Assembly: GCA_963830365.1 (NCBI GenBank)
Contig: CAWHMU010000003.1
Span: 1-54,322, forward strand
Direction: 5' to 3'
Source: an uncultured Chlamydiae bacterium
GTDB taxonomy: Bacteria; Chlamydiota; Chlamydiia; Chlamydiales; Parachlamydiaceae
DNA length: 54,322 bases
The notes below the pieces were generated by a model. It was given only the letters and a program-made list of their open reading frames with translations. It searched no databases and had not been told where the DNA came from. This document shows positions 12,266-48,309 of the stretch, in pieces. The translations under genes and the position numbers were made by a program. Within the stretch, counting starts at the first letter, position 1. The number at the start of each line of letters is the position of its first letter.

Positions 12266-12981
12266 GGCCTAAGCTTTTTCGAATTCGGGCATGGGCACGG
12301 GCTCGGGCACGTAATTTTAGTTTGGGCTCTGCCACAAACAAGATATCGAGAGGACTCAGCTTTTCCAGTAGTAGCTTTGGGAGCTTAGGGCTTTTTTAAG
12401 CCAGGTAGGGGCATGCAGGCAGCTTTTTCCGAGGCGGTAGCCGGCTCCATTTGGCCAGGATATGGGCGCAGGCATAGGGGAGCTGCTGGGGGGCTTCTTT
12501 GGCCAGGCGTTTGGTCATTTGCCGTACGAAGTCAAGGCCGCGCTTGCCATCGCTGCTGTCGCAGGCTAAAAGCGCGGCATAGTCCTTGCGGGCGATGCCG
12601 GTGTCGAAGTTGCGGCGGAATTCCTGCCACAGCGAATAGTAGTGGGAGTGGTGGACGATGGCCTCTGCCACATAGGCGATGCTGTAATCGTTTCTAAGTA
12701 ATTTAGCCACCGCCAATCTTCGCCGAGCAATACGCGCGGGAATCCGCCGACGGCATCTAAGGCTGCATTGGTGTAGGCGGCGCAGGAGTCAGAACAGAAG
12801 AAGGTGTAGACGCCATATTTGGAGAGGTCTTTCAGGCTGCGCACATGGCTTGTGGGGGGGTAGTTATATTCCCTTGGAAAGGCTTCAAAGAAGCCGGCGC
12901 CATGGTGCGGCACCTGTCTGGCATAGGCGGTGGCGGAAAGTCCCTGCACGAGTGGATCGACAAGCCTGCCCAAAGCCTCGG
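12266..12981. repeat. Direct repeat, copy 1, of 15757-16475
   Basis: Collinear match from GGCCTAAGCTTTTTCGAATT to AAGCCTGCCCAAAGCCTCGG, with scattered substitutions and small indels. Confidence 0.95.
12365..12981 (-). pseudogene. 5'-truncated, frameshifted copy of the GT2 glycosyltransferase at 15844-16767
   Basis: Two ORF fragments (12566-13018, 12396-12716) reproduce the intact protein; 4-nt loss near 12711-12715 and 1-nt gain near 12443. Confidence 0.9.
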
Positions 12982-13044
12982 ATGGTGGATAATCGAAGCT
13001 TTTGAGTAGCAAAAACAACCCTCACCCTTTTACAACGATTTTAA

Positions 13045-13269
13045 GGGCTCTTAAGCTATTTTGAGCATAGAATTGATAATGGCAAAGCAGAGGGAATCAA
13101 CAATAAGATCAAGGTTGTCAAACGGCAAGCCTATGGCTTTCACGATTTGGAGTATTTCAAGTTGAGGTTGTACCACCTTCACAGGAAAGAATGCCAGTTG
13201 GTGGGTTAGTGGACATTGCTCTCTGAGGAATTGTCTCGGAAAGTCTGCCCCCAATTCCCGAGAAGAACC
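13045..13269 (+). mobile_element. ISL3-family transposase C-terminal remnant with right terminal inverted repeat
   Basis: 13045-13209 translates GLLSYFEHRIDNGKAEGINNKIKVVKRQAYGFHDLEYFKLRLYHLH (ISL3 C-terminal E-motif). Ends in CCCAATTCCCGAGAAGAACC, reverse complement GGTTCTTC-type TIR. Confidence 0.85.
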
Positions 13270-15756: not shown

Positions 15757-16475
15757 GGCCTAAGCTTTTTCGAATTAGGGCGCGCGCACGAGCACGCACA
15801 CGGGCATGTAATTTTAGTTTAGGCTTTGCCATGAAAAGGAATATTACGGATTATCCCAGTAGTAGCTTTGGGAGCTTAGGGCTTTTTTAAGCCAGATGGG
15901 GGCATGCAGGCAGCTTTTTCCGAGGTGGTAGCCGCTCCATTTGGCCAGGATATGGGCGCAGGCATAAGGGAGCTGCTGGGGGGCTTCTTTGGCCAGGCGT
16001 TTGTTCATTTGCCGTACGAAGTCAAGGCCGCGTTTACCATCGCTGCTGTCGCAGGCGAGGAGGTCGGCATAGCCCTTGCGGGCGATGCCGGTGTCGAAGT
16101 TGCGGCGGAATTCCTGCCACAGCGAATAGTGGTGGGAGTGGTGGACGATGGCCTCTGCCACATAGGCGATGCTGTAATCGTTTCTAAGTAATTTAGCCAC
16201 GGCCACGGTATCTTCGCCGAGCAATACGCGCGGGAATCCGCCGACGGCATCTAAGGCTGCATTGGTGTAGGCGGCGCAGGAGTCTGAACAGAAGAAGGTA
16301 TAGACGCCATATTTGGAGAGGTCTTTCAGGCTGCGCACATGGCTTTTGGCCGGGTAGTTATATTCCCTCGGAAAGGCTTCGAAGAAGCCGGCGCCATGGT
16401 GCGGCACCTGTCTGGCATAGGCGGCGGCGGAAAGTCCCTGCACGAGCGGATCGACAAGCCTGCCCAAAGCCTCGG
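15757..16475. repeat. Direct repeat, copy 2, of 12266-12981
   Basis: See copy 1; this copy contains the intact 3' part of the GT2 gene. Confidence 0.95.
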
Positions 16476-23393: not shown

Positions 23394-23988
23394 CCTGTGG
23401 TCTTTAGCTCAAGGGGCTATTTATGGTTCATCGCACAATCGCGTACCTCCCCATATGTAAACTAATGGAGGATGTTAAATAAATCATACATATACCATGA
23501 TCTAGTGAGAATTTGAGTTGGCATTGCCATACAAGAGATAGGGCACAAGCCATGAGAACATTTTTACAGCCCGATAGAGGCTATGGTATAAATGACAATA
23601 AATTTGTTTATATTATAAATTTATTGCCTTTTCCCTAAAAAACACGGATTTTTGGGAAAGGTTCAAAAGCAGGTAATACTCAAAAAATACTAAGATGTTT
23701 CCTGGCCATTCTACAATCTTGTTTTTCGTTAGTGTAACCGACATTTCTCTTTTTTAAGGCTCATCACACAAATGAGTGGTTGACTTAGGGTTCATCCAGT
23801 TATGCAGGACAAAGATGCATAGCATGACATAGGCGAAGCCCATCTCTTTGTAGCCCGTCAGCTAAGGCTTGCGAGCGCAGCGAATGCAGCCGCAGCTACG
23901 GGACAGCAAGAAAAGTGCTCTACCCCGTAGGGGTTCTTCTCTTTATAATCTATTAAGGTGGAAGTATCTAAAGAGAAGAACCCCTACC

Positions 23989-24579
23989 GAGACAATTGCA
24001 TAAGTGACAATAAAATTTTATAACATAAATTTATTACCTTTTCCCTAAAAAAACACGGATTTTTGAGAAAGGTTCAAAAGTAGGTAATACTCAAAAAATA
24101 CTAAGATGATGGCAGGATGCCAGGAAACATCTTTTTTGCCCTTTTTCTCTCATTTTGTAGCCCACACCAAGGCGGAGGAACGGAGCCGCAGGTGTGGGAA
24201 AAAATTGTAAGTGATTAACCAGGGACTGGTTCTTCTTTTTATTTTTGGTCGAGGTTAAACTTAAAGCCTTTTGAATCAAGGGTTAAAAAATGAAGAACCA
24301 GTCCCTGGTTAGTTTGTAATTCTCATTATACCCACACCTGCGGCTTCGTTCCTCCGCCTTGGTGTGGGCTACAAAATGAGAGAAAAAGGGCAAAAAAGAT
24401 GTTTCCTGGCCATTCTACAATCTTGTTTGTTCGTTAGTGTAACCGACATTTCTCTTTTTTTAAACCATGCCGATTTTTGAGTATTTTGAGCGTTCTAGGA
24501 TAGATTCTTTTCGATCCCGGATATGATTGGCTTCCAAAGAATCGCTGTATAACACGCAAAACACTTCTGCAATTGGCTC
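23989..24579. mobile_element. GAG-type MITE (~590 bp), copy 1, carrying a REP-B doublet
   Basis: TIRs GAGACAATTGCATAAGTG / CACTTCTGCAATTGGCTC; near-identical to 37630-38221; internal IR ~24118-24411. Confidence 0.85.
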
Positions 24580-24596
24580 GATAGAAGCAGATGCGT

Positions 24597-24788
24597 GTAG
24601 CCACAGGTGTCAACCTGTGGAATAAAATGTAGCATAAAGAGAGCCGTGAAGACGGCGGCAGCAATGACTAAAGGATAGTATATACTATAATAATTGCATC
24701 TAATTCAGCCTCCATCGAAATTGCTGTCGCCGTATTCACGGCTCTCTTTATACTATATTTTATTCCATAGGTTGACATCTATGGCTAC
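24597..24788. repeat. GTAG-type REPIN (inverted REP-A doublet)
   Basis: GTAG-CCACAGG-TGTCAA-CCTGTGG at 24597; inverted copy ending ...ATGGCTAC at 24788; arms extend ~70 bp inward. Confidence 0.9.
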
Positions 24789-24982
24789 ATGCTTCCACCT
24801 CTATCGAGGCTAACTAGACCTGCTGTGCTAGAATGCCGATTTGTTTCAAAGAGAACATTACAAATAGATCATTATTTCTCATATTTCAACCATCAATTAC
24901 TAAGGGTTTTTGACGAATCATCATAGTATAGACTTTCTATTTCCCATTTCAGGATGTTATGAAATCCGGCAGTTCTGTCTCA

Positions 24983-27319: not shown

Positions 27320-27570
27320 GTTTCATCCGGTTTTATAGGACCCGCCTAGAAAAGGATGCGTAGAAATGGGGAAATGTAGGTAACACATCGGAGCAGAAAT
27401 AACAGGATATTAGGATGGACAGGATGAAAGATTTAAACTTTAGTTTGACAACTTTGCGATTTACATAAGTCTTGGGCGATCATCCTATTTTTCATATCCT
27501 GATCATCGTAATATCCTGTTATTTTTGCTTGCCCTTTTCTCTTTACAAGTCCTACAAAACCGGATGAACC
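27320..27570. mobile_element. ISL3-type MITE, family b, 251 bp, 8-bp TSD CCGTTTAT
   Basis: TIRs GTTTCATCCGGTTTTATAGGAC / GTCCTACAAAACCGGATGAACC; CCGTTTAT at 27312-27319 and 27571-27578. Confidence 0.9.
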
Positions 27571-27604
27571 CCGTTTATGTGTGCTTATTATGTTATATAA
27601 AAAT

Positions 27605-28148
27605 GGTTCATCGCACAATCGCGTACCTGTCTGAGAGGATTCGTTAAAAAGACTTAATAATGGCTGGTTGGAAAACGAGAATTAACAATATATTTGTGGG
27701 GTTCTCTTTGAAACAAATCGACATTCTAGCACAGAAGATCTAGTTAGCCTCGATAGAGGCGGAAGCATGTAGCCATAGGTGTCAACCTATGGAATGAAAT
27801 GTAGCAAAAAGTGAGCTGTGAATACGGCGACAGCAACTTCGAGGGAGGTTGAATTAAATGCGATTATTACACCATATAATATCCTTTAGTCATTGCTGTC
27901 GCCGTATTCACGGCTTTGTTTCTAAACATGTGATGACCACACGCTGACGCATGTGGCTACATGCTTCCGCCTCTATCGAGGCTTTAAAAATGTTCTCATG
28001 GCTTGCGCCCTGTCGCTTATATGGCAGTACTGGCTCAACTCCTACCTTCACAGGAGCGAACATGCAATTTGTGGATTTTTATGATGCATTATTTGCAACG
28101 ACCTCGATTAATTTACATAAGGCGAGGTACGCGATTGTGCGATGAACC
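27605..28148. mobile_element. ISL3-type MITE, family a, 544 bp, 8-bp TSD ATAAAAAT, carrying a REP-A REPIN
   Basis: Perfect 24-bp TIR GGTTCATCGCACAATCGCGTACCT; ATAAAAAT at 27597-27604 and 28149-28156; GTAG REPs at 27769-27792 (+) and 27937-27960 (-). Confidence 0.93.
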
Positions 28149-28279
28149 ATAAAAATGCTTGTATATTCAACTTGCTCCTTCACATCTAGCAGCTCCCTTG
28201 CGCCTTCGCATTTCCTCCGCGTCTCTGCGTTAAATTTTTTAGAAGGTAGCCATGGTACGAAAACTTGCATCATTGTATC

Positions 28280-28507
28280 TATACCGAACGTAATTCAAAA
28301 TTTGGTATTTCCAGCTGCGCGAAAATCTCCGCGGATCAAAGAGCATAAGCGACCCAACATTAAGTCAATATGGGGTCGCTTATGCTCTTTGATCCCCGGA
28401 GTTTTGGCGCGCTCGAAATGCCAACTTTTTGAATCACGTTCGGTATATACCACACGCGGCTAGGTTTGGCGATTTTCGGCAACGCCAACCTAGCCGCGTG
28501 TGGTATA
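28280..28507. repeat. Two abutting TATACC...GGTATA palindromic elements (ERIC-like)
   Basis: 168-bp imperfect hairpin 28280-28447 and 62-bp hairpin 28446-28507 share one TA; both lie inside an ACGCAGAG-type IR pair (~28198-28231 / ~28533-28566). Confidence 0.85.
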
Positions 28508-37084: not shown

Positions 37085-37325
37085 AAAGTCGCCTTGGTTT
37101 TTAAACAAGAGTAATTTAAAGCATAAAATCTTGTTACTTAATCTGCAATATCTTGTTATGAAACAGCCGGGGCTTTGGCGCAGTCCAATATGTCAAATTC
37201 TCACTAGATCATGGTATATGGTTGTTAGCCGGAAATAGCGGCGGCAGCATGTAGCCACAGGCGTAAGCCTGTGGTTGTGCCACCAAAGACGCCAAGCCGT
37301 GAATACGGCGGCAGCAGTATAATCA

Positions 37326-38300
37326 GGCTCATCCGGTTTTGTAGGACTCATAATCGGCCATTGGTTTAATTTCGTCCGAAAAAGAAAAAAGAAGAACCCC
37401 TTCCGGGGTTTATATGAGGACATTCTTGTTCCCATACCTGCGGCTCCGCTGCCGCTCCACCTTGGTATGGGCTACAGAATGAGAGAAAAAAGGGCAAAAA
37501 AGATAGCATCCACGCCCTCTTTTTTGTCCTTTTTCTCTCATTCTGTAGCCCGTAGCCAAGGCTCGCGAGCAGCAGCGAAGACGAGCCACAGCTACGGGAA
37601 ACGCAATGTATATGAAGTTAACCCCGGATGAGATAATTGCATAAGTGACAATAAATTTGTTTATAACATAAATTTATTGCCTTTTCCCTAAAAAAACACG
37701 GATTTTTGGGAAAGGTTCAAAAGCAGGTAATACTCAAAAAATTTAAGATGATGGTAGGATGCCAGGAAACATCTTTTTTGCCCTTTTTCTCTCATTATGT
37801 AGCCCACACCAAGGCGGAGGAACGGAGCCGCAGGTGTGGGAAAAAATTGTAAGTGATTAACCAGGGACTGGTTCTTCTTTTTATCTTTGGTCGAGATTAA
37901 ACTTAAAGCCTTTTGAATCAAGAGCAAAAAAAAGAAGAACCAGTCCCTGGTTAGTTTATAATTCTCATTATACCCACACCTGCGGCTTCGTTCCTCCGCC
38001 TTGGTGTGGGCTACATAATGAGAGAAAAAGGGCAAAAAAGATGTTTCTTGGCCATTCTACAATCTTGTTTTTTCGTTAGTGTAACCGACATTTCTCTTTT
38101 TTTAAACCATGCCGATTTTTGAGTATTTTGAGTGTTCTAGGATAGATTCTTTTCGATCCCGGATATGATTGGCTTCCAAAGAATCGCTGTATAACACACA
38201 AAACACTTATGCAATTGCCTCGGATGGGGTTCCTCTTTTTCATTTTTCGGACAAAATTAAACCAATGGCCGATAACGAGTCCTACAAAACCGGATGAGCC
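37326..38300. mobile_element. ISL3-type MITE, family b, 8-bp TSD TATAATCA
   Basis: TIRs GGCTCATCCGGTTTTGTAGGACTC / GAGTCCTACAAAACCGGATGAGCC; TATAATCA at 37318-37325 and 38301-38308. Confidence 0.93.
37630..38221. mobile_element. GAG-type MITE, copy 2, 4-bp TSD GGAT
   Basis: TIRs GAGATAATTGCATAAGTG / CACTTATGCAATTGCCTC; GGAT at 37626-37629 and 38222-38225; REP-B doublet at 37799-38014. Confidence 0.9.
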
Positions 38301-38906
38301 TATAATCATTGCATCTAATTCAGCTTCCATCGAAATTGCTGTCGCCGTATTCATGGCTCTCTTTATACTACAATTTATTCCATAGGTTGACACCTATGGC
38401 TACATGCTTACGCCTCTATCGAGGCTAACTAGACCTTCTGTGCTAGAATGCCGATTTGTTTCAAAGAGAACATTACAAATAGATCATTACTTCTCATATT
38501 TCAACCATCAATGACTAAGGCTTTTTGACGAATCATCGGCGGTATTTTTGCAACTCTCTCATTTGTGCGATGAACCGAATGTTTTCGCCACGAGATGACG
38601 ATGAAGTTTTGTCTGTTTTTATCCTGACCATCCTAAAATCCTGTTCCTTTGTCCTTTTTCCTTTTGCCTTTTGCCTCTTTCCTTTATCTTTTCTGTTGGA
38701 GGCTTTTGCAAAACTGGTAAAACAGCGGGATTTTGAGAGGTTTTTCGATGGGAGGCAAAAAATATAAAGACCGTAAACAGCTAAGTGTTATCTTTTTATG
38801 TTTTTTTCTCCCAGCGAAAAAGATCCAAAAGACCGCCTTTTCCTAAATATTGCAAATGCCTCTTAGCTAGAACTTTTCCGTTACCAATTTCCAAAGAGTG
38901 TGGGTT

Positions 38907-40384: not shown

Positions 40385-41143
40385 AAAAATTATAACGCCC
40401 CCTTGGGGCTGGATTGTGTTTGTGGCACATCCCACGGTTTGCGTCTTTGACGCTACACCATGGGCTACAAATATTGTCGCTCCGTTGGAGCTTAGCAAAG
40501 CTGTTATAAATTTTGGTTCATCACACAAACGAGTACCTCGTCTTATATAAATTATAGATTCGTTCTTTTAAGCATGGTTGTTAGCCGCGAATAGCGGCGG
40601 CAGCATGTAGCCACAGGCGTAAGCCTGTGGTTGTGCCACCAAAGATACCAAGCCGTGATAACGGCGACAGCAATGACTAAGGATATTATCTGCTATCATA
40701 ACTGTATCGGATTCAACTTCCCTCGAAGTTGCTGTCGCCGTATTCACGGCTCACCTTTTGCTACATTTCATACCATAGGTTGACACCTATGGCTACATGC
40801 TTCCGCCTCTATCGAGGCTAACCAGACCTTCTGTGCTAGAATGTCGATTTGTTTCAAAGAGAACTTTACAAATATATTTTTAATTCTCGTTTTCCAACCA
40901 GCCATTATTGAGTCTTTTTAACGAATCCTCTAGGACAGGTACGCGATTGTGCGATGAACCTAAATTTTTTAGCATTTAAAACACCTCTTACGCCCTTAAC
41001 CTTTAAAAAATAAATTCCGCGAACTTTGGTTGCTGAGCTCCGTAGGAGTGGCCATATTTGTAGCCCATGGTGTAGCGTCGAAGACGCAAATCGTGGGATG
41101 TGCCAAAAAAACAATCCAGCCCCAAAGGGGCGTTATAATTTTT
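40385..41143. repeat. REP-C inverted doublet (~113-bp arms) interrupted by a MITE
   Basis: 40385-40498 is the reverse complement of 41029-41143 with a few mismatches; GTAGCCCATGG motif at 41060. Confidence 0.88.
40515..40960. mobile_element. ISL3-type MITE, family a, 446 bp, 8-bp TSD TAAATTTT, carrying a REP-A REPIN
   Basis: TIRs GGTTCATCACACAAACGAGTACCT / AGGTACGCGATTGTGCGATGAACC; TAAATTTT at 40507-40514 and 40961-40968; REPs at 40607 (+) and 40773-40796 (-). Confidence 0.92.
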
Positions 41144-45410: not shown

Positions 45411-45435
45411 CAGCGCGGTGACTGTCTTGTTCAAG

Positions 45436-45648
45436 CCTCGCAAGAGGCGTCAGCGTGTGGCTACATGCTGCCGCCTCTATCGAGGCTGTAAAAATGTTCT
45501 CATGGCTTGTGCCCTATCTCTTGTATGGCAGTGCCAACTCAAATCCTTCCTTCACAGGGTCGAACGCGCAATTTGCCATTATGTATGATTTATTTAACAT
45601 CCTCCATTAGTTTACATATGGGGAGGTACGCGATTGTGCGATGAACTG
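45436..45648. mobile_element. Right half of a family-a MITE (one REP-A, subterminal region and TIR)
   Basis: Near-identical to 48115-48309; ends AGGTACGCGATTGTGCGATGAAC. Confidence 0.85.
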
Positions 45649-47770: not shown

Positions 47771-48309
47771 GGCTCATCACGCAAATGAGTACCTGTCCAT
47801 GATGATTCGTCAAAAAGCCTTAGTAATTGATGGTTGAAATATGAGAAGTAATGATCTATTTGTAATGTTCTCTTTGAAACAAATCGGCATTCTAGCACAG
47901 AAGGTCTAGTTAGCCTCGATAGAGGCGGAAGCATGTAGCCATAGGTGTCAACCTATGGAATAAAATGCAGTATAAAGAGAGCCGTGAATACGGCGACAGC
48001 AATTTCGATGGAAGCTGAATTTGATGCAATTATTATAGCATATACTATCCTTCAGTCATTGCTGCCGCCGTATTCACGGCTTTGTTTCTAAACATGCGAT
48101 TACCACACGCTGACGCATGTGGCTACATGCTTCCGCCTCTATCGAGGCTGTAAAAATGTTCTCATGGCTTGTGCCCTATCTCTTGTATGGCAGTGCCAAC
48201 TCAAATCCTTCCTTCACAGGATCGAACGCGCAATTTGTTATTATGTATGATTTATTTAACATCCTCCATTAGTTTACATATGGGGAGGTACGCGATTGTG
48301 CGATGAACC
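47771..48309. mobile_element. ISL3-type MITE, family a, 539 bp, carrying a REP-A REPIN (no exact TSD)
   Basis: TIRs GGCTCATCACGCAAATGAGTACCT / AGGTACGCGATTGTGCGATGAACC; collinear with 27605-28148; REPs at 47935 (+) and 48103-48126 (-). Confidence 0.88.

Follow-up and report, generated by a model that had tools for sequence, protein, structure and literature searches.

How does a pair of REP hairpins, the repeats of a HUH nuclease system, come to lie between the terminal repeats of what looks like a DDE-type transposon, and do the two travel together? This question is raised by a 544-bp element at positions 27605-28148 of the window, that is, of the whole 54,322-nt stretch of DNA analysed, which is contig C3 of a host genome (G000) of 2.73 Mb, 82% complete and in 48 contigs. 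The DnaB encoded here exceeds the cut-off of PRK06321, the chlamydial model. The terminal 24 bp on both sides are perfect inverted repeats (TIRs), and the element is flanked by an exact duplication of ATAAAAAT. Within it there is no ORF of at least 100 aa, and its centre is occupied by two inverted, GTAG-tagged REP-A arms that form a 238-bp inverted repeat (73%); folded as single-stranded DNA, the element reaches z = -11 relative to 100 shuffles. An earlier note on this DNA had claimed the perfect TIRs, the exact duplication, the absence of a transposase and the central REP-A doublet, all of which are confirmed. Target duplications indicate DDE rather than HUH chemistry. Taken as a whole, the locus is probably best explained, judging from the sequence comparisons below, as a gene-less transposon in which left and right ISL3 ends enclose a REP hairpin pair, inserted as one piece at many sites and likely moved in trans. 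These comparisons support movement as a unit well; its origin we infer. The organization of the element and its further copies in the window are given in the table.

Table. Features of the 544-bp element, and further copies of its lineage in the window
Feature	Position	Strand	Remark
Left 8-bp target duplication	27597..27604	.	
Left 24-bp TIR	27605..27628	+	Similarity to ISL3 ends
ISL3 left-end remnant	27629..27717	+	Leader reaching just before the transposase start codon
Linker	27718..27745	+	28 bp
REP-A arm 1	27746..27792	+	Small hairpin, GTAG at 27769, 20-bp palindrome
Inner partial arm	27814..27835	+	Hairpin only; 68 bp after arm 1
Spacer	27836..27893	.	Occupies the position of the Y1 gene in relatives' REPtrons
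Inverted inner partial arm	27894..27915	-	
REP-A arm 2	27937..27983	-	
Right module	27984..28124	+	About 90 bp, then about 50 bp weakly like the ISL3 transposase 3' end
Right 24-bp TIR	28125..28148	-	
Right 8-bp target duplication	28149..28156	.	
446-bp mosaic relative	40515..40960	-	Shares the left module but has another, short right end; 8-bp duplication exact
Full-length older copy	47771..48309	+	86% identical; without target duplication (5/8 mismatches)
Interrupted copy	23425..24922	-	Nested mini-elements; without left TIR
446-type copy	37220..38577	-	975-bp ISL3-type element in spacer, with its own exact 8-bp duplication
Right half only	45434..45647	+	

Both ends of the element can be related to the ISL3 family. 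The host genome contains 22 matches to the ISL3 transposase domain (PF01610), some of them in full-length, open frames. A 1327-bp ISL3 element scores 325 bits against a cut-off of 180 for the NCBIfam ISL3 model (NF033550); the four copies compared are identical, and all six of its paired frames carry exact 8-bp duplications. An intact 1302-bp ISL3 type and a broken 1377-bp type are also present. The TIR of young copies is identical to the closest ISL3 ends of the genome at 19-20 of 24 positions and the left end of older copies at 21-22. The young TIR departs from that of the intact 1327-bp element at 5-6 of its 24 positions, so this element is not necessarily the source of the cognate transposase. 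The left module can be aligned with an ISL3 left end as far as position 113, immediately ahead of the start codon, and none of 200 shuffles was as good as the alignment obtained with an older copy. The right end weakly resembles the last codons of the ISL3 transposase (4 of 200 shuffles were as good), a similarity that is clearer in variants, where it extends to about position 56-76. Pairs of ISL3-like ends with an exact 8-bp duplication occur 72 times in the genome and never in the reversed genome, so such pairs do not arise by chance, and these 72 duplications are 78% AT. Indeed, passages of PMC3469429 describe 8-bp duplications with a possible AT preference for ISL3 elements; there and in parts of bioRxiv 2023.06.07.543989, the ISL3 mechanism is described as undetermined, circles having been seen for IS1411. 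With its ends, AT-rich 8-bp duplication, lack of a transposase, multiple copies and a helper in the genome, the 544-bp element has the features of an ISL3-derived MITE.

What lies between these ends is of a different nature. A transposase remnant was considered for the interior and rejected, as tblastn against ISL3 transposases gave no significant match. Likewise, the 28-bp linker was considered as a carried REPIN flank and this was rejected, its similarity to the flanks of free doublets being non-significant (20 of 300 shuffles as good). None of the seven Rfam matches listed reaches the gathering score and none of them is inside the element. A promoter scan found no site in the element and one in the region against 4.3 expected; the same scan gave one terminator-like site against 1.8 expected. 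Another near-perfect hairpin of about 69 bp (28330-28398) is located between the element and an RND efflux operon, which, with an ORF on the opposite side, bounds the 1.5-kb gap where the element sits. At 27320-27570, 26 bp from the element, there is an ISL3-type mini-element of 251 bp that belongs to another family; it is flanked by an exact 8-bp duplication of its own, and its core matches repeats flanking a GxxExxY gene on contig C45.

To follow the REP-A repeat itself, we used an arm profile, which recovered 189 full arms in the genome, the best control hit having an E of 0.67. Among these arms, 95 abut a mini-element module, 19 belong to a 67-bp tandem array and 75 lie elsewhere; the array unit compares with the 68-bp offset between arm 1 and the inner partial arm of the 544-bp element. 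The earlier note had proposed a census of REP-A inside and outside the TIRs: 43 of 64 doublets touch a transposon module and 21 are free, some of the latter looking like decayed frames. The framed doublets have a median identity of 0.91, compared with 0.67 for 17 free ones, the four others, each shorter than 170 bp, being omitted from this comparison. The 43 framed doublets, with near-identical spacers and target duplications, do not show the slow HUH spread with diverse spacers that characterizes REPINs, whereas the free ones, being diverse, fit it. Transposon frames thus hold about two thirds of the REP-A doublets, and a DDE enzyme, rather than their own HUH enzyme, is likely responsible for the abundance of these framed copies.

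The free-standing forms include tandem doublets on contig C46 and some twenty 67-bp REP-A units in tandem at C18:1-1373, an array that runs off the contig start with a partial unit at the edge. None of the nine Y1 matches of this genome, 82% complete, is flanked by REP-A; the missing Y1 gene may lie beyond the edge of the C18 array. In a relative (G002), a 154-aa Y1 gene has a full arm and an inner hairpin on each side, which is the layout of the doublet with the gene replacing the spacer. Broken versions of this REP-A-flanked gene are found in G002, G014, G006 and G013, and locus L154 is intermediate, with a gene stub between inner hairpins. The Y1 protein of locus L044 passes the IS200/IS605 model (NF033573) and has no match to the RAYT model (NF047646) at 1e-5. 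Moreover, its motif is Y-x3-Q-x2-HH, the signature that PMC6006769 gives for subclass 1.2. From these motif and model matches, the enzyme linked to REP-A appears to be an IS200-like protein and not a canonical RAYT (Group 2/3). The cargo had been called a complete REPIN. Two inverted 5'-GTAG palindromes that form a hairpin, free copies and arrays, and linkage to a Y1 gene in relatives all agree with this description; the enzyme, an IS200/IS605 TnpA and not a RAYT, does not. By its sequence, the cargo would thus work like a REPIN but lack one membership feature, the Group 2/3 RAYT. With eight Y1 and two GxxExxY loci, the host genome is unusually rich in hairpin-associated nuclease genes for an environmental chlamydia, and several of these loci have their own repeat class. 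One of them (L014, C45:169619-170494) encodes a 291-aa protein with two tandem Y1 domains and has its own REPs on both sides.

The same architecture had been reported at several other positions of the window, and all these loci are members of the lineage, with various alterations. The copy at 40515-40960 does have an exact duplication, but it is a mosaic, its TIRs carrying three mismatches and its short end and arm differing from those of the 544-bp element; it is homologous to composites of another genome, G013. The 47771-48309 copy is full length as claimed but lacks the duplication. The loci 23425-24922 and 37220-38577 are partial copies, though broken by nested insertions and each missing one end, and the piece indicated at 45436-45648 is a partial copy consisting of the right half. 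Further nesting is seen around them. The 446-bp variant is itself inserted in the doublet spacer of another REP class with 114-bp arms, 89% alike (40385-41143). At 23989-24579 and 37630-38221, mini-forms of a non-ISL3 element occupy REP hairpin loops, with an apparent 4-bp duplication. This family, also found at C1:1-1463, C34:4325-4916 and C29:8890-9068 of the host genome, has a 404-aa open frame with weak IS1182/IS5 matches below cut-off, and its 592-bp mini-form carries a REP doublet of the C27 Y1 class while a 179-bp sister does not. Elsewhere in the window, a repeat of about 620 bp (12365-12981 and 15856-16475, 96-97% identical, 3.5 kb apart) adjoins an ISL3 transposase fragment at 13006-13170.

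The earlier note had seen one hairpin-cored family. Clustering of ends defined 11 types of ISL3 mini-element in the genome, eight multicopy and three seen once, and each was examined for an internal inverted repeat of at least 30 bp after trimming 30 bp from each end. Ten of the 11 types have such a repeat, and eight retain it after a 60-bp trim. Among randomly drawn free intergenic segments, such a repeat is present in 25 of 150 cases at 200 bp, 60 of 150 at 350 bp and 58 of 150 at 500 bp, that is, in 17-40%, so that 10 of 11 corresponds to P of about 4e-5 when the types are treated as independent, which they are not fully. The hairpin-cored arrangement is therefore the rule among ISL3 mini-elements here, and several unrelated hairpin classes take part in it. 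Indeed, sequences bordering Y1 genes of this genome are matched by the cores of the 488-, 239-, 975- and 531-bp types, and those bordering two GxxExxY genes by the cores of the 251-, 209- and 551-bp types. The 410-bp core has only a weak match to flanks of dedicated genes in this genome (E 0.004), and the 341-bp core has none among them. We also looked for a complete REPtron between ISL3 ends and rejected this possibility, the long frames examined holding other insertions and no Y1 gene. These insertions are ORFs that, by their motifs, we take to be reverse-transcriptase-like, IS110-like and IS1634-like. For instance, some 1.9 kb containing a 419-aa ORF, presumably a group II intron reverse transcriptase, splits a 488-bp mini-element (C46:71190-73543), and two 410-bp mini-elements (C29:8711-11111 and C42:67789-70007) are interrupted by one shared ORF that, from its motifs, we assume to be IS110-like.

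Similar arrangements exist outside the host genome. No genome of the same genus is among the 60 relatives compared; REP-A-like arms are present in nine of them and the full 544-bp element in none. Of 401 genomes of the phylum, 27 contain the ISL3-type end motif, one of these being the host. Loci sampled from five other genomes, which do not amount to a census, gave 13 distinct paired frames, of which ten have an internal inverted repeat, eight a duplication and seven both; two short frames of G143 have no hairpin pair. The frames of G013, which belongs to another genus, are homologous to the 446-bp variant (65% in the left module, 78% in the short end plus arm). Its two cleanly paired frames are both without duplication, and no ISL3 transposase was found in this genome, which is 57% complete.

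As to how the composite arose, the doublet would derive from a REPtron that lost its Y1 gene. The composite would have formed once, when a doublet with little flank came to replace the ISL3 transposase gene, most likely by Y1-mediated insertion followed by deletion. Later recombination within the shared doublet would then have swapped ends, yielding the 446-, 422- and 528-bp variants. We give this origin, replacement of the transposase gene by the doublet, about an even chance. Between ends and arms there are linkers of 2-90 bp that are not IS-like; cleavage at a distance from the REP, as by E. coli TnpA(REP), would account for them. An insertion intermediate was sought in ten transposase-bearing ISL3 frames, and none has a REP-A arm. 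In the doublet tree, four label changes are needed, but the tree is unrooted and its bootstrap unsettled, so that neither a single origin nor the direction of capture is shown by it.

The same linkers fit capture of chromosomal DNA too: by inserting to the left and right of a chromosomal REP doublet, two ISL3 or MITE ends could have captured it with some flank as a miniature compound transposon, with the same movement afterwards. Such a route is seen in this genome, where the 301- and 383-bp families consist of the 209-bp mini-element plus an ISL3 left end, with duplications in 10 of 10, and ISL3-type elements do insert in and beside doublets. Hairpin pairs, present in 17-40% of free intergenic segments, would be easy to capture. 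However, their frequency among mini-element cores exceeds that background. Furthermore, the 544-bp element has one left and one right IS end in native orientation, as internal deletion gives, one cut falls close to the start codon and the other inside roughly the last 20 codons, and the same two junctions recur in another genus. Overall, two-end capture is possible but the less probable route.

The hairpin pair itself could have created the mini-element, template switching at the long inverted repeat placing a duplicate of one neighbouring IS end on the other side; this is unlikely for the 544-bp family but has more plausibility for symmetric families. In the 488-bp family, both ends are left ends of one IS, cut at positions 57 and 54, and the symmetry of the 239-, 410- and 975-bp elements extends far past the TIR. 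In young 544-bp copies, the right TIR sequence is present at both ends, which is not the case in older copies. Nevertheless, the left and right modules of the 544-bp element are unlike, so template switching is not its primary origin and at most explains the perfect TIRs and the symmetric families.

Whichever way the composite formed, its copies bear on how it spreads. The lineage, defined as loci with at least 40 bp of flanking module (BLAST, host genome), comprises 65 loci. At least one REP junction is kept in 60 of them, the other five being short fragments. Both modules are kept in 40, and in 39 of these the doublet lies at the same junctions; the doublet's position had been expected to vary if it were a later arrival, and it does not. 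The fortieth has no doublet but keeps pieces of both arms, which points to later collapse, and no clean empty frame, the REPIN-less form that had been suggested as a check, exists among the 65 loci. Of 24 copies with paired ends, 14 have an exact duplication, three have one mismatch and seven have none, so the lack of duplications foreseen as an objection applies to seven of them and not to the other 17. The claim that the composite moves as a unit is borne out by these two counts. Among 74 ends, 39 have no matched partner; ectopic recombination was considered as the cause of the missing duplications and is not established, a single cross-match being found among the 39 orphan ends.

MITE arms and REP arms, whose trees the earlier note had wished to see compared, diverge together: across 26 near-full copies, Mantel correlations are 0.63 between left module and doublet and 0.73 between doublet and right module, with a range of 0.56-0.73 over module pairs (p = 0.001). 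Only 2 of 544 bases distinguish the C3 copy from the C27 copy, and their duplications are not the same, which would reflect recent movement. Three of 26 tested elements lie in repeats with 17-29 uninterrupted paralogues and a fourth in one with two; in the best case, the empty site is 98% identical and has a single copy of the 8-mer. The rest of this test gave two single weak hits and one artefact hit. Paralogous empty sites within the genome thus show whole-unit insertion; for the 27605 locus itself, an empty target site had no match in the metagenome contigs. Two 544-bp copies at C4:44741-45834 stand in tandem, 5 bp apart and with duplications that do not match, and may represent insertion beside an existing end, or a dimer.

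Carriage of the whole unit by the Y1 (HUH) enzyme or by recombination, the TIRs being passive, is very unlikely. According to PMC3333891, E. coli TnpA(REP) cleaves some way off the REPs, so that adjacent DNA could be carried along, and the mosaic variants reveal recombination between copies, but the insertions stop precisely at the TIRs and have 8-bp duplications of the kind seen with intact ISL3 elements. Even less credible is independent insertion of doublets by a Y1 enzyme at a preferred site in pre-existing MITE copies. Free REP-A doublets exist (21 of 64) and relatives have a REP-A-flanked Y1 gene, yet the sole doublet-less frame is a later collapse, doublet and flanks diverge together, and, whereas the framed doublets are 91% alike, no free doublet matches them at more than 81%. 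An assembly artefact of a repeat-rich metagenome bin is the least probable of all, for although several of the 48 contigs end in IS or REP repeats and a read set covering the locus was not found, the copies diverge by 0.4-16%, come with duplications of their own and are consistently nested, and a homologous composite is present in an independent genome. Movement in trans by an ISL3 transposase is therefore very probably the right reading of these sequences; that transposase might come from the intact 1327-bp element or from one related to the broken 1377-bp type.

The number of REP copies is taken to record RAYT activity. Since about two thirds of one REP class are here in ISL3 mini-elements, REP counts and diversity can mislead. 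At least eight multicopy mini-element types, with hairpin-pair cores and intact helpers nearby, also offer a testable route for the origin of MITEs. Tentatively, and at somewhat less than even likelihood, hairpin pairs of dedicated nucleases (Y1/RAYT-type, GxxExxY) might be the usual seed of bacterial MITEs: a doublet would land in or beside an IS and replace or bypass the transposase gene, and the DDE enzyme would amplify the short hairpin-cored product. If so, REP-type repeats would acquire a second means of spreading, one that is much faster and does not depend on their own enzyme, and they could cross between genera with the IS.

Collectively, these data describe a composite of two known kinds, real and well supported, and apparently undescribed. 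The earlier note knew of no description of this arrangement; likewise, the full-text literature, subscription journals and ISfinder lying outside its scope, yielded none of REP doublets inside DDE MITEs. The main text of the Ssn nuclease paper (PMC11893778) contains no mention of MITE, ISL3, RAYT or GxxExxY. REPtron repeats are listed in the supplements of PMC3733652 and PMC6006769, which may be relevant to how REP-A is named. Bertels and Rainey (bioRxiv 2021.07.10.451892) regard REPINs and MITEs as distinct classes whose duplication rates lie about a thousand-fold apart.

The element shares with ISL3 insertion sequences (IS31831, IS1411) and IS-derived MITEs its homologous ends, 8-bp AT-rich duplications, absence of coding capacity and intact helpers. 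In contrast to these, its interior is the repeat of an unrelated HUH system and not a transposase remnant, and such a foreign repeat interior is found in most mini-element types of the genome. With REPINs and BIMEs and their REPtrons, as outlined in parts of PMC3337134, PMC3333891 and PMC3733652, it has in common the inverted GTAG palindromes and hairpin, the free doublets, the tandem arrays and a Y1 gene flanked by the same repeats, here in relatives. However, most REP-A copies here are within DDE-type ends with target duplications, and the linked enzyme is of subclass 1.2 (Y-x3-Q-x2-HH; excerpts of PMC6006769) instead of a Group 2/3 RAYT. The REP-targeting IS1397, IS621 and IS1594, covered in sections of PMC3184786, similarly associate DDE or other IS with REP by nesting, and here too an IS5/IS1182-like element nests in REPs. 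There the IS is in the REP, whereas here the doublet is in the transposon and travels with it. In IMU and NFM2-MITE, taken from the same sections of PMC3184786, IS ends also mobilise foreign DNA in trans, but MITE pairs flank genes, while here single ends flank a non-coding repeat as a fixed unit. BrickBuilt/MITEPgRS of Porphyromonas gingivalis, as presented in part of PMC4596501, is likewise a MITE with IS-like TIRs and another repeat as its core, and its repeat-less form is unseen as well; it differs in its IS5-like ends and in its core, a minisatellite of direct repeats that has no dedicated enzyme.
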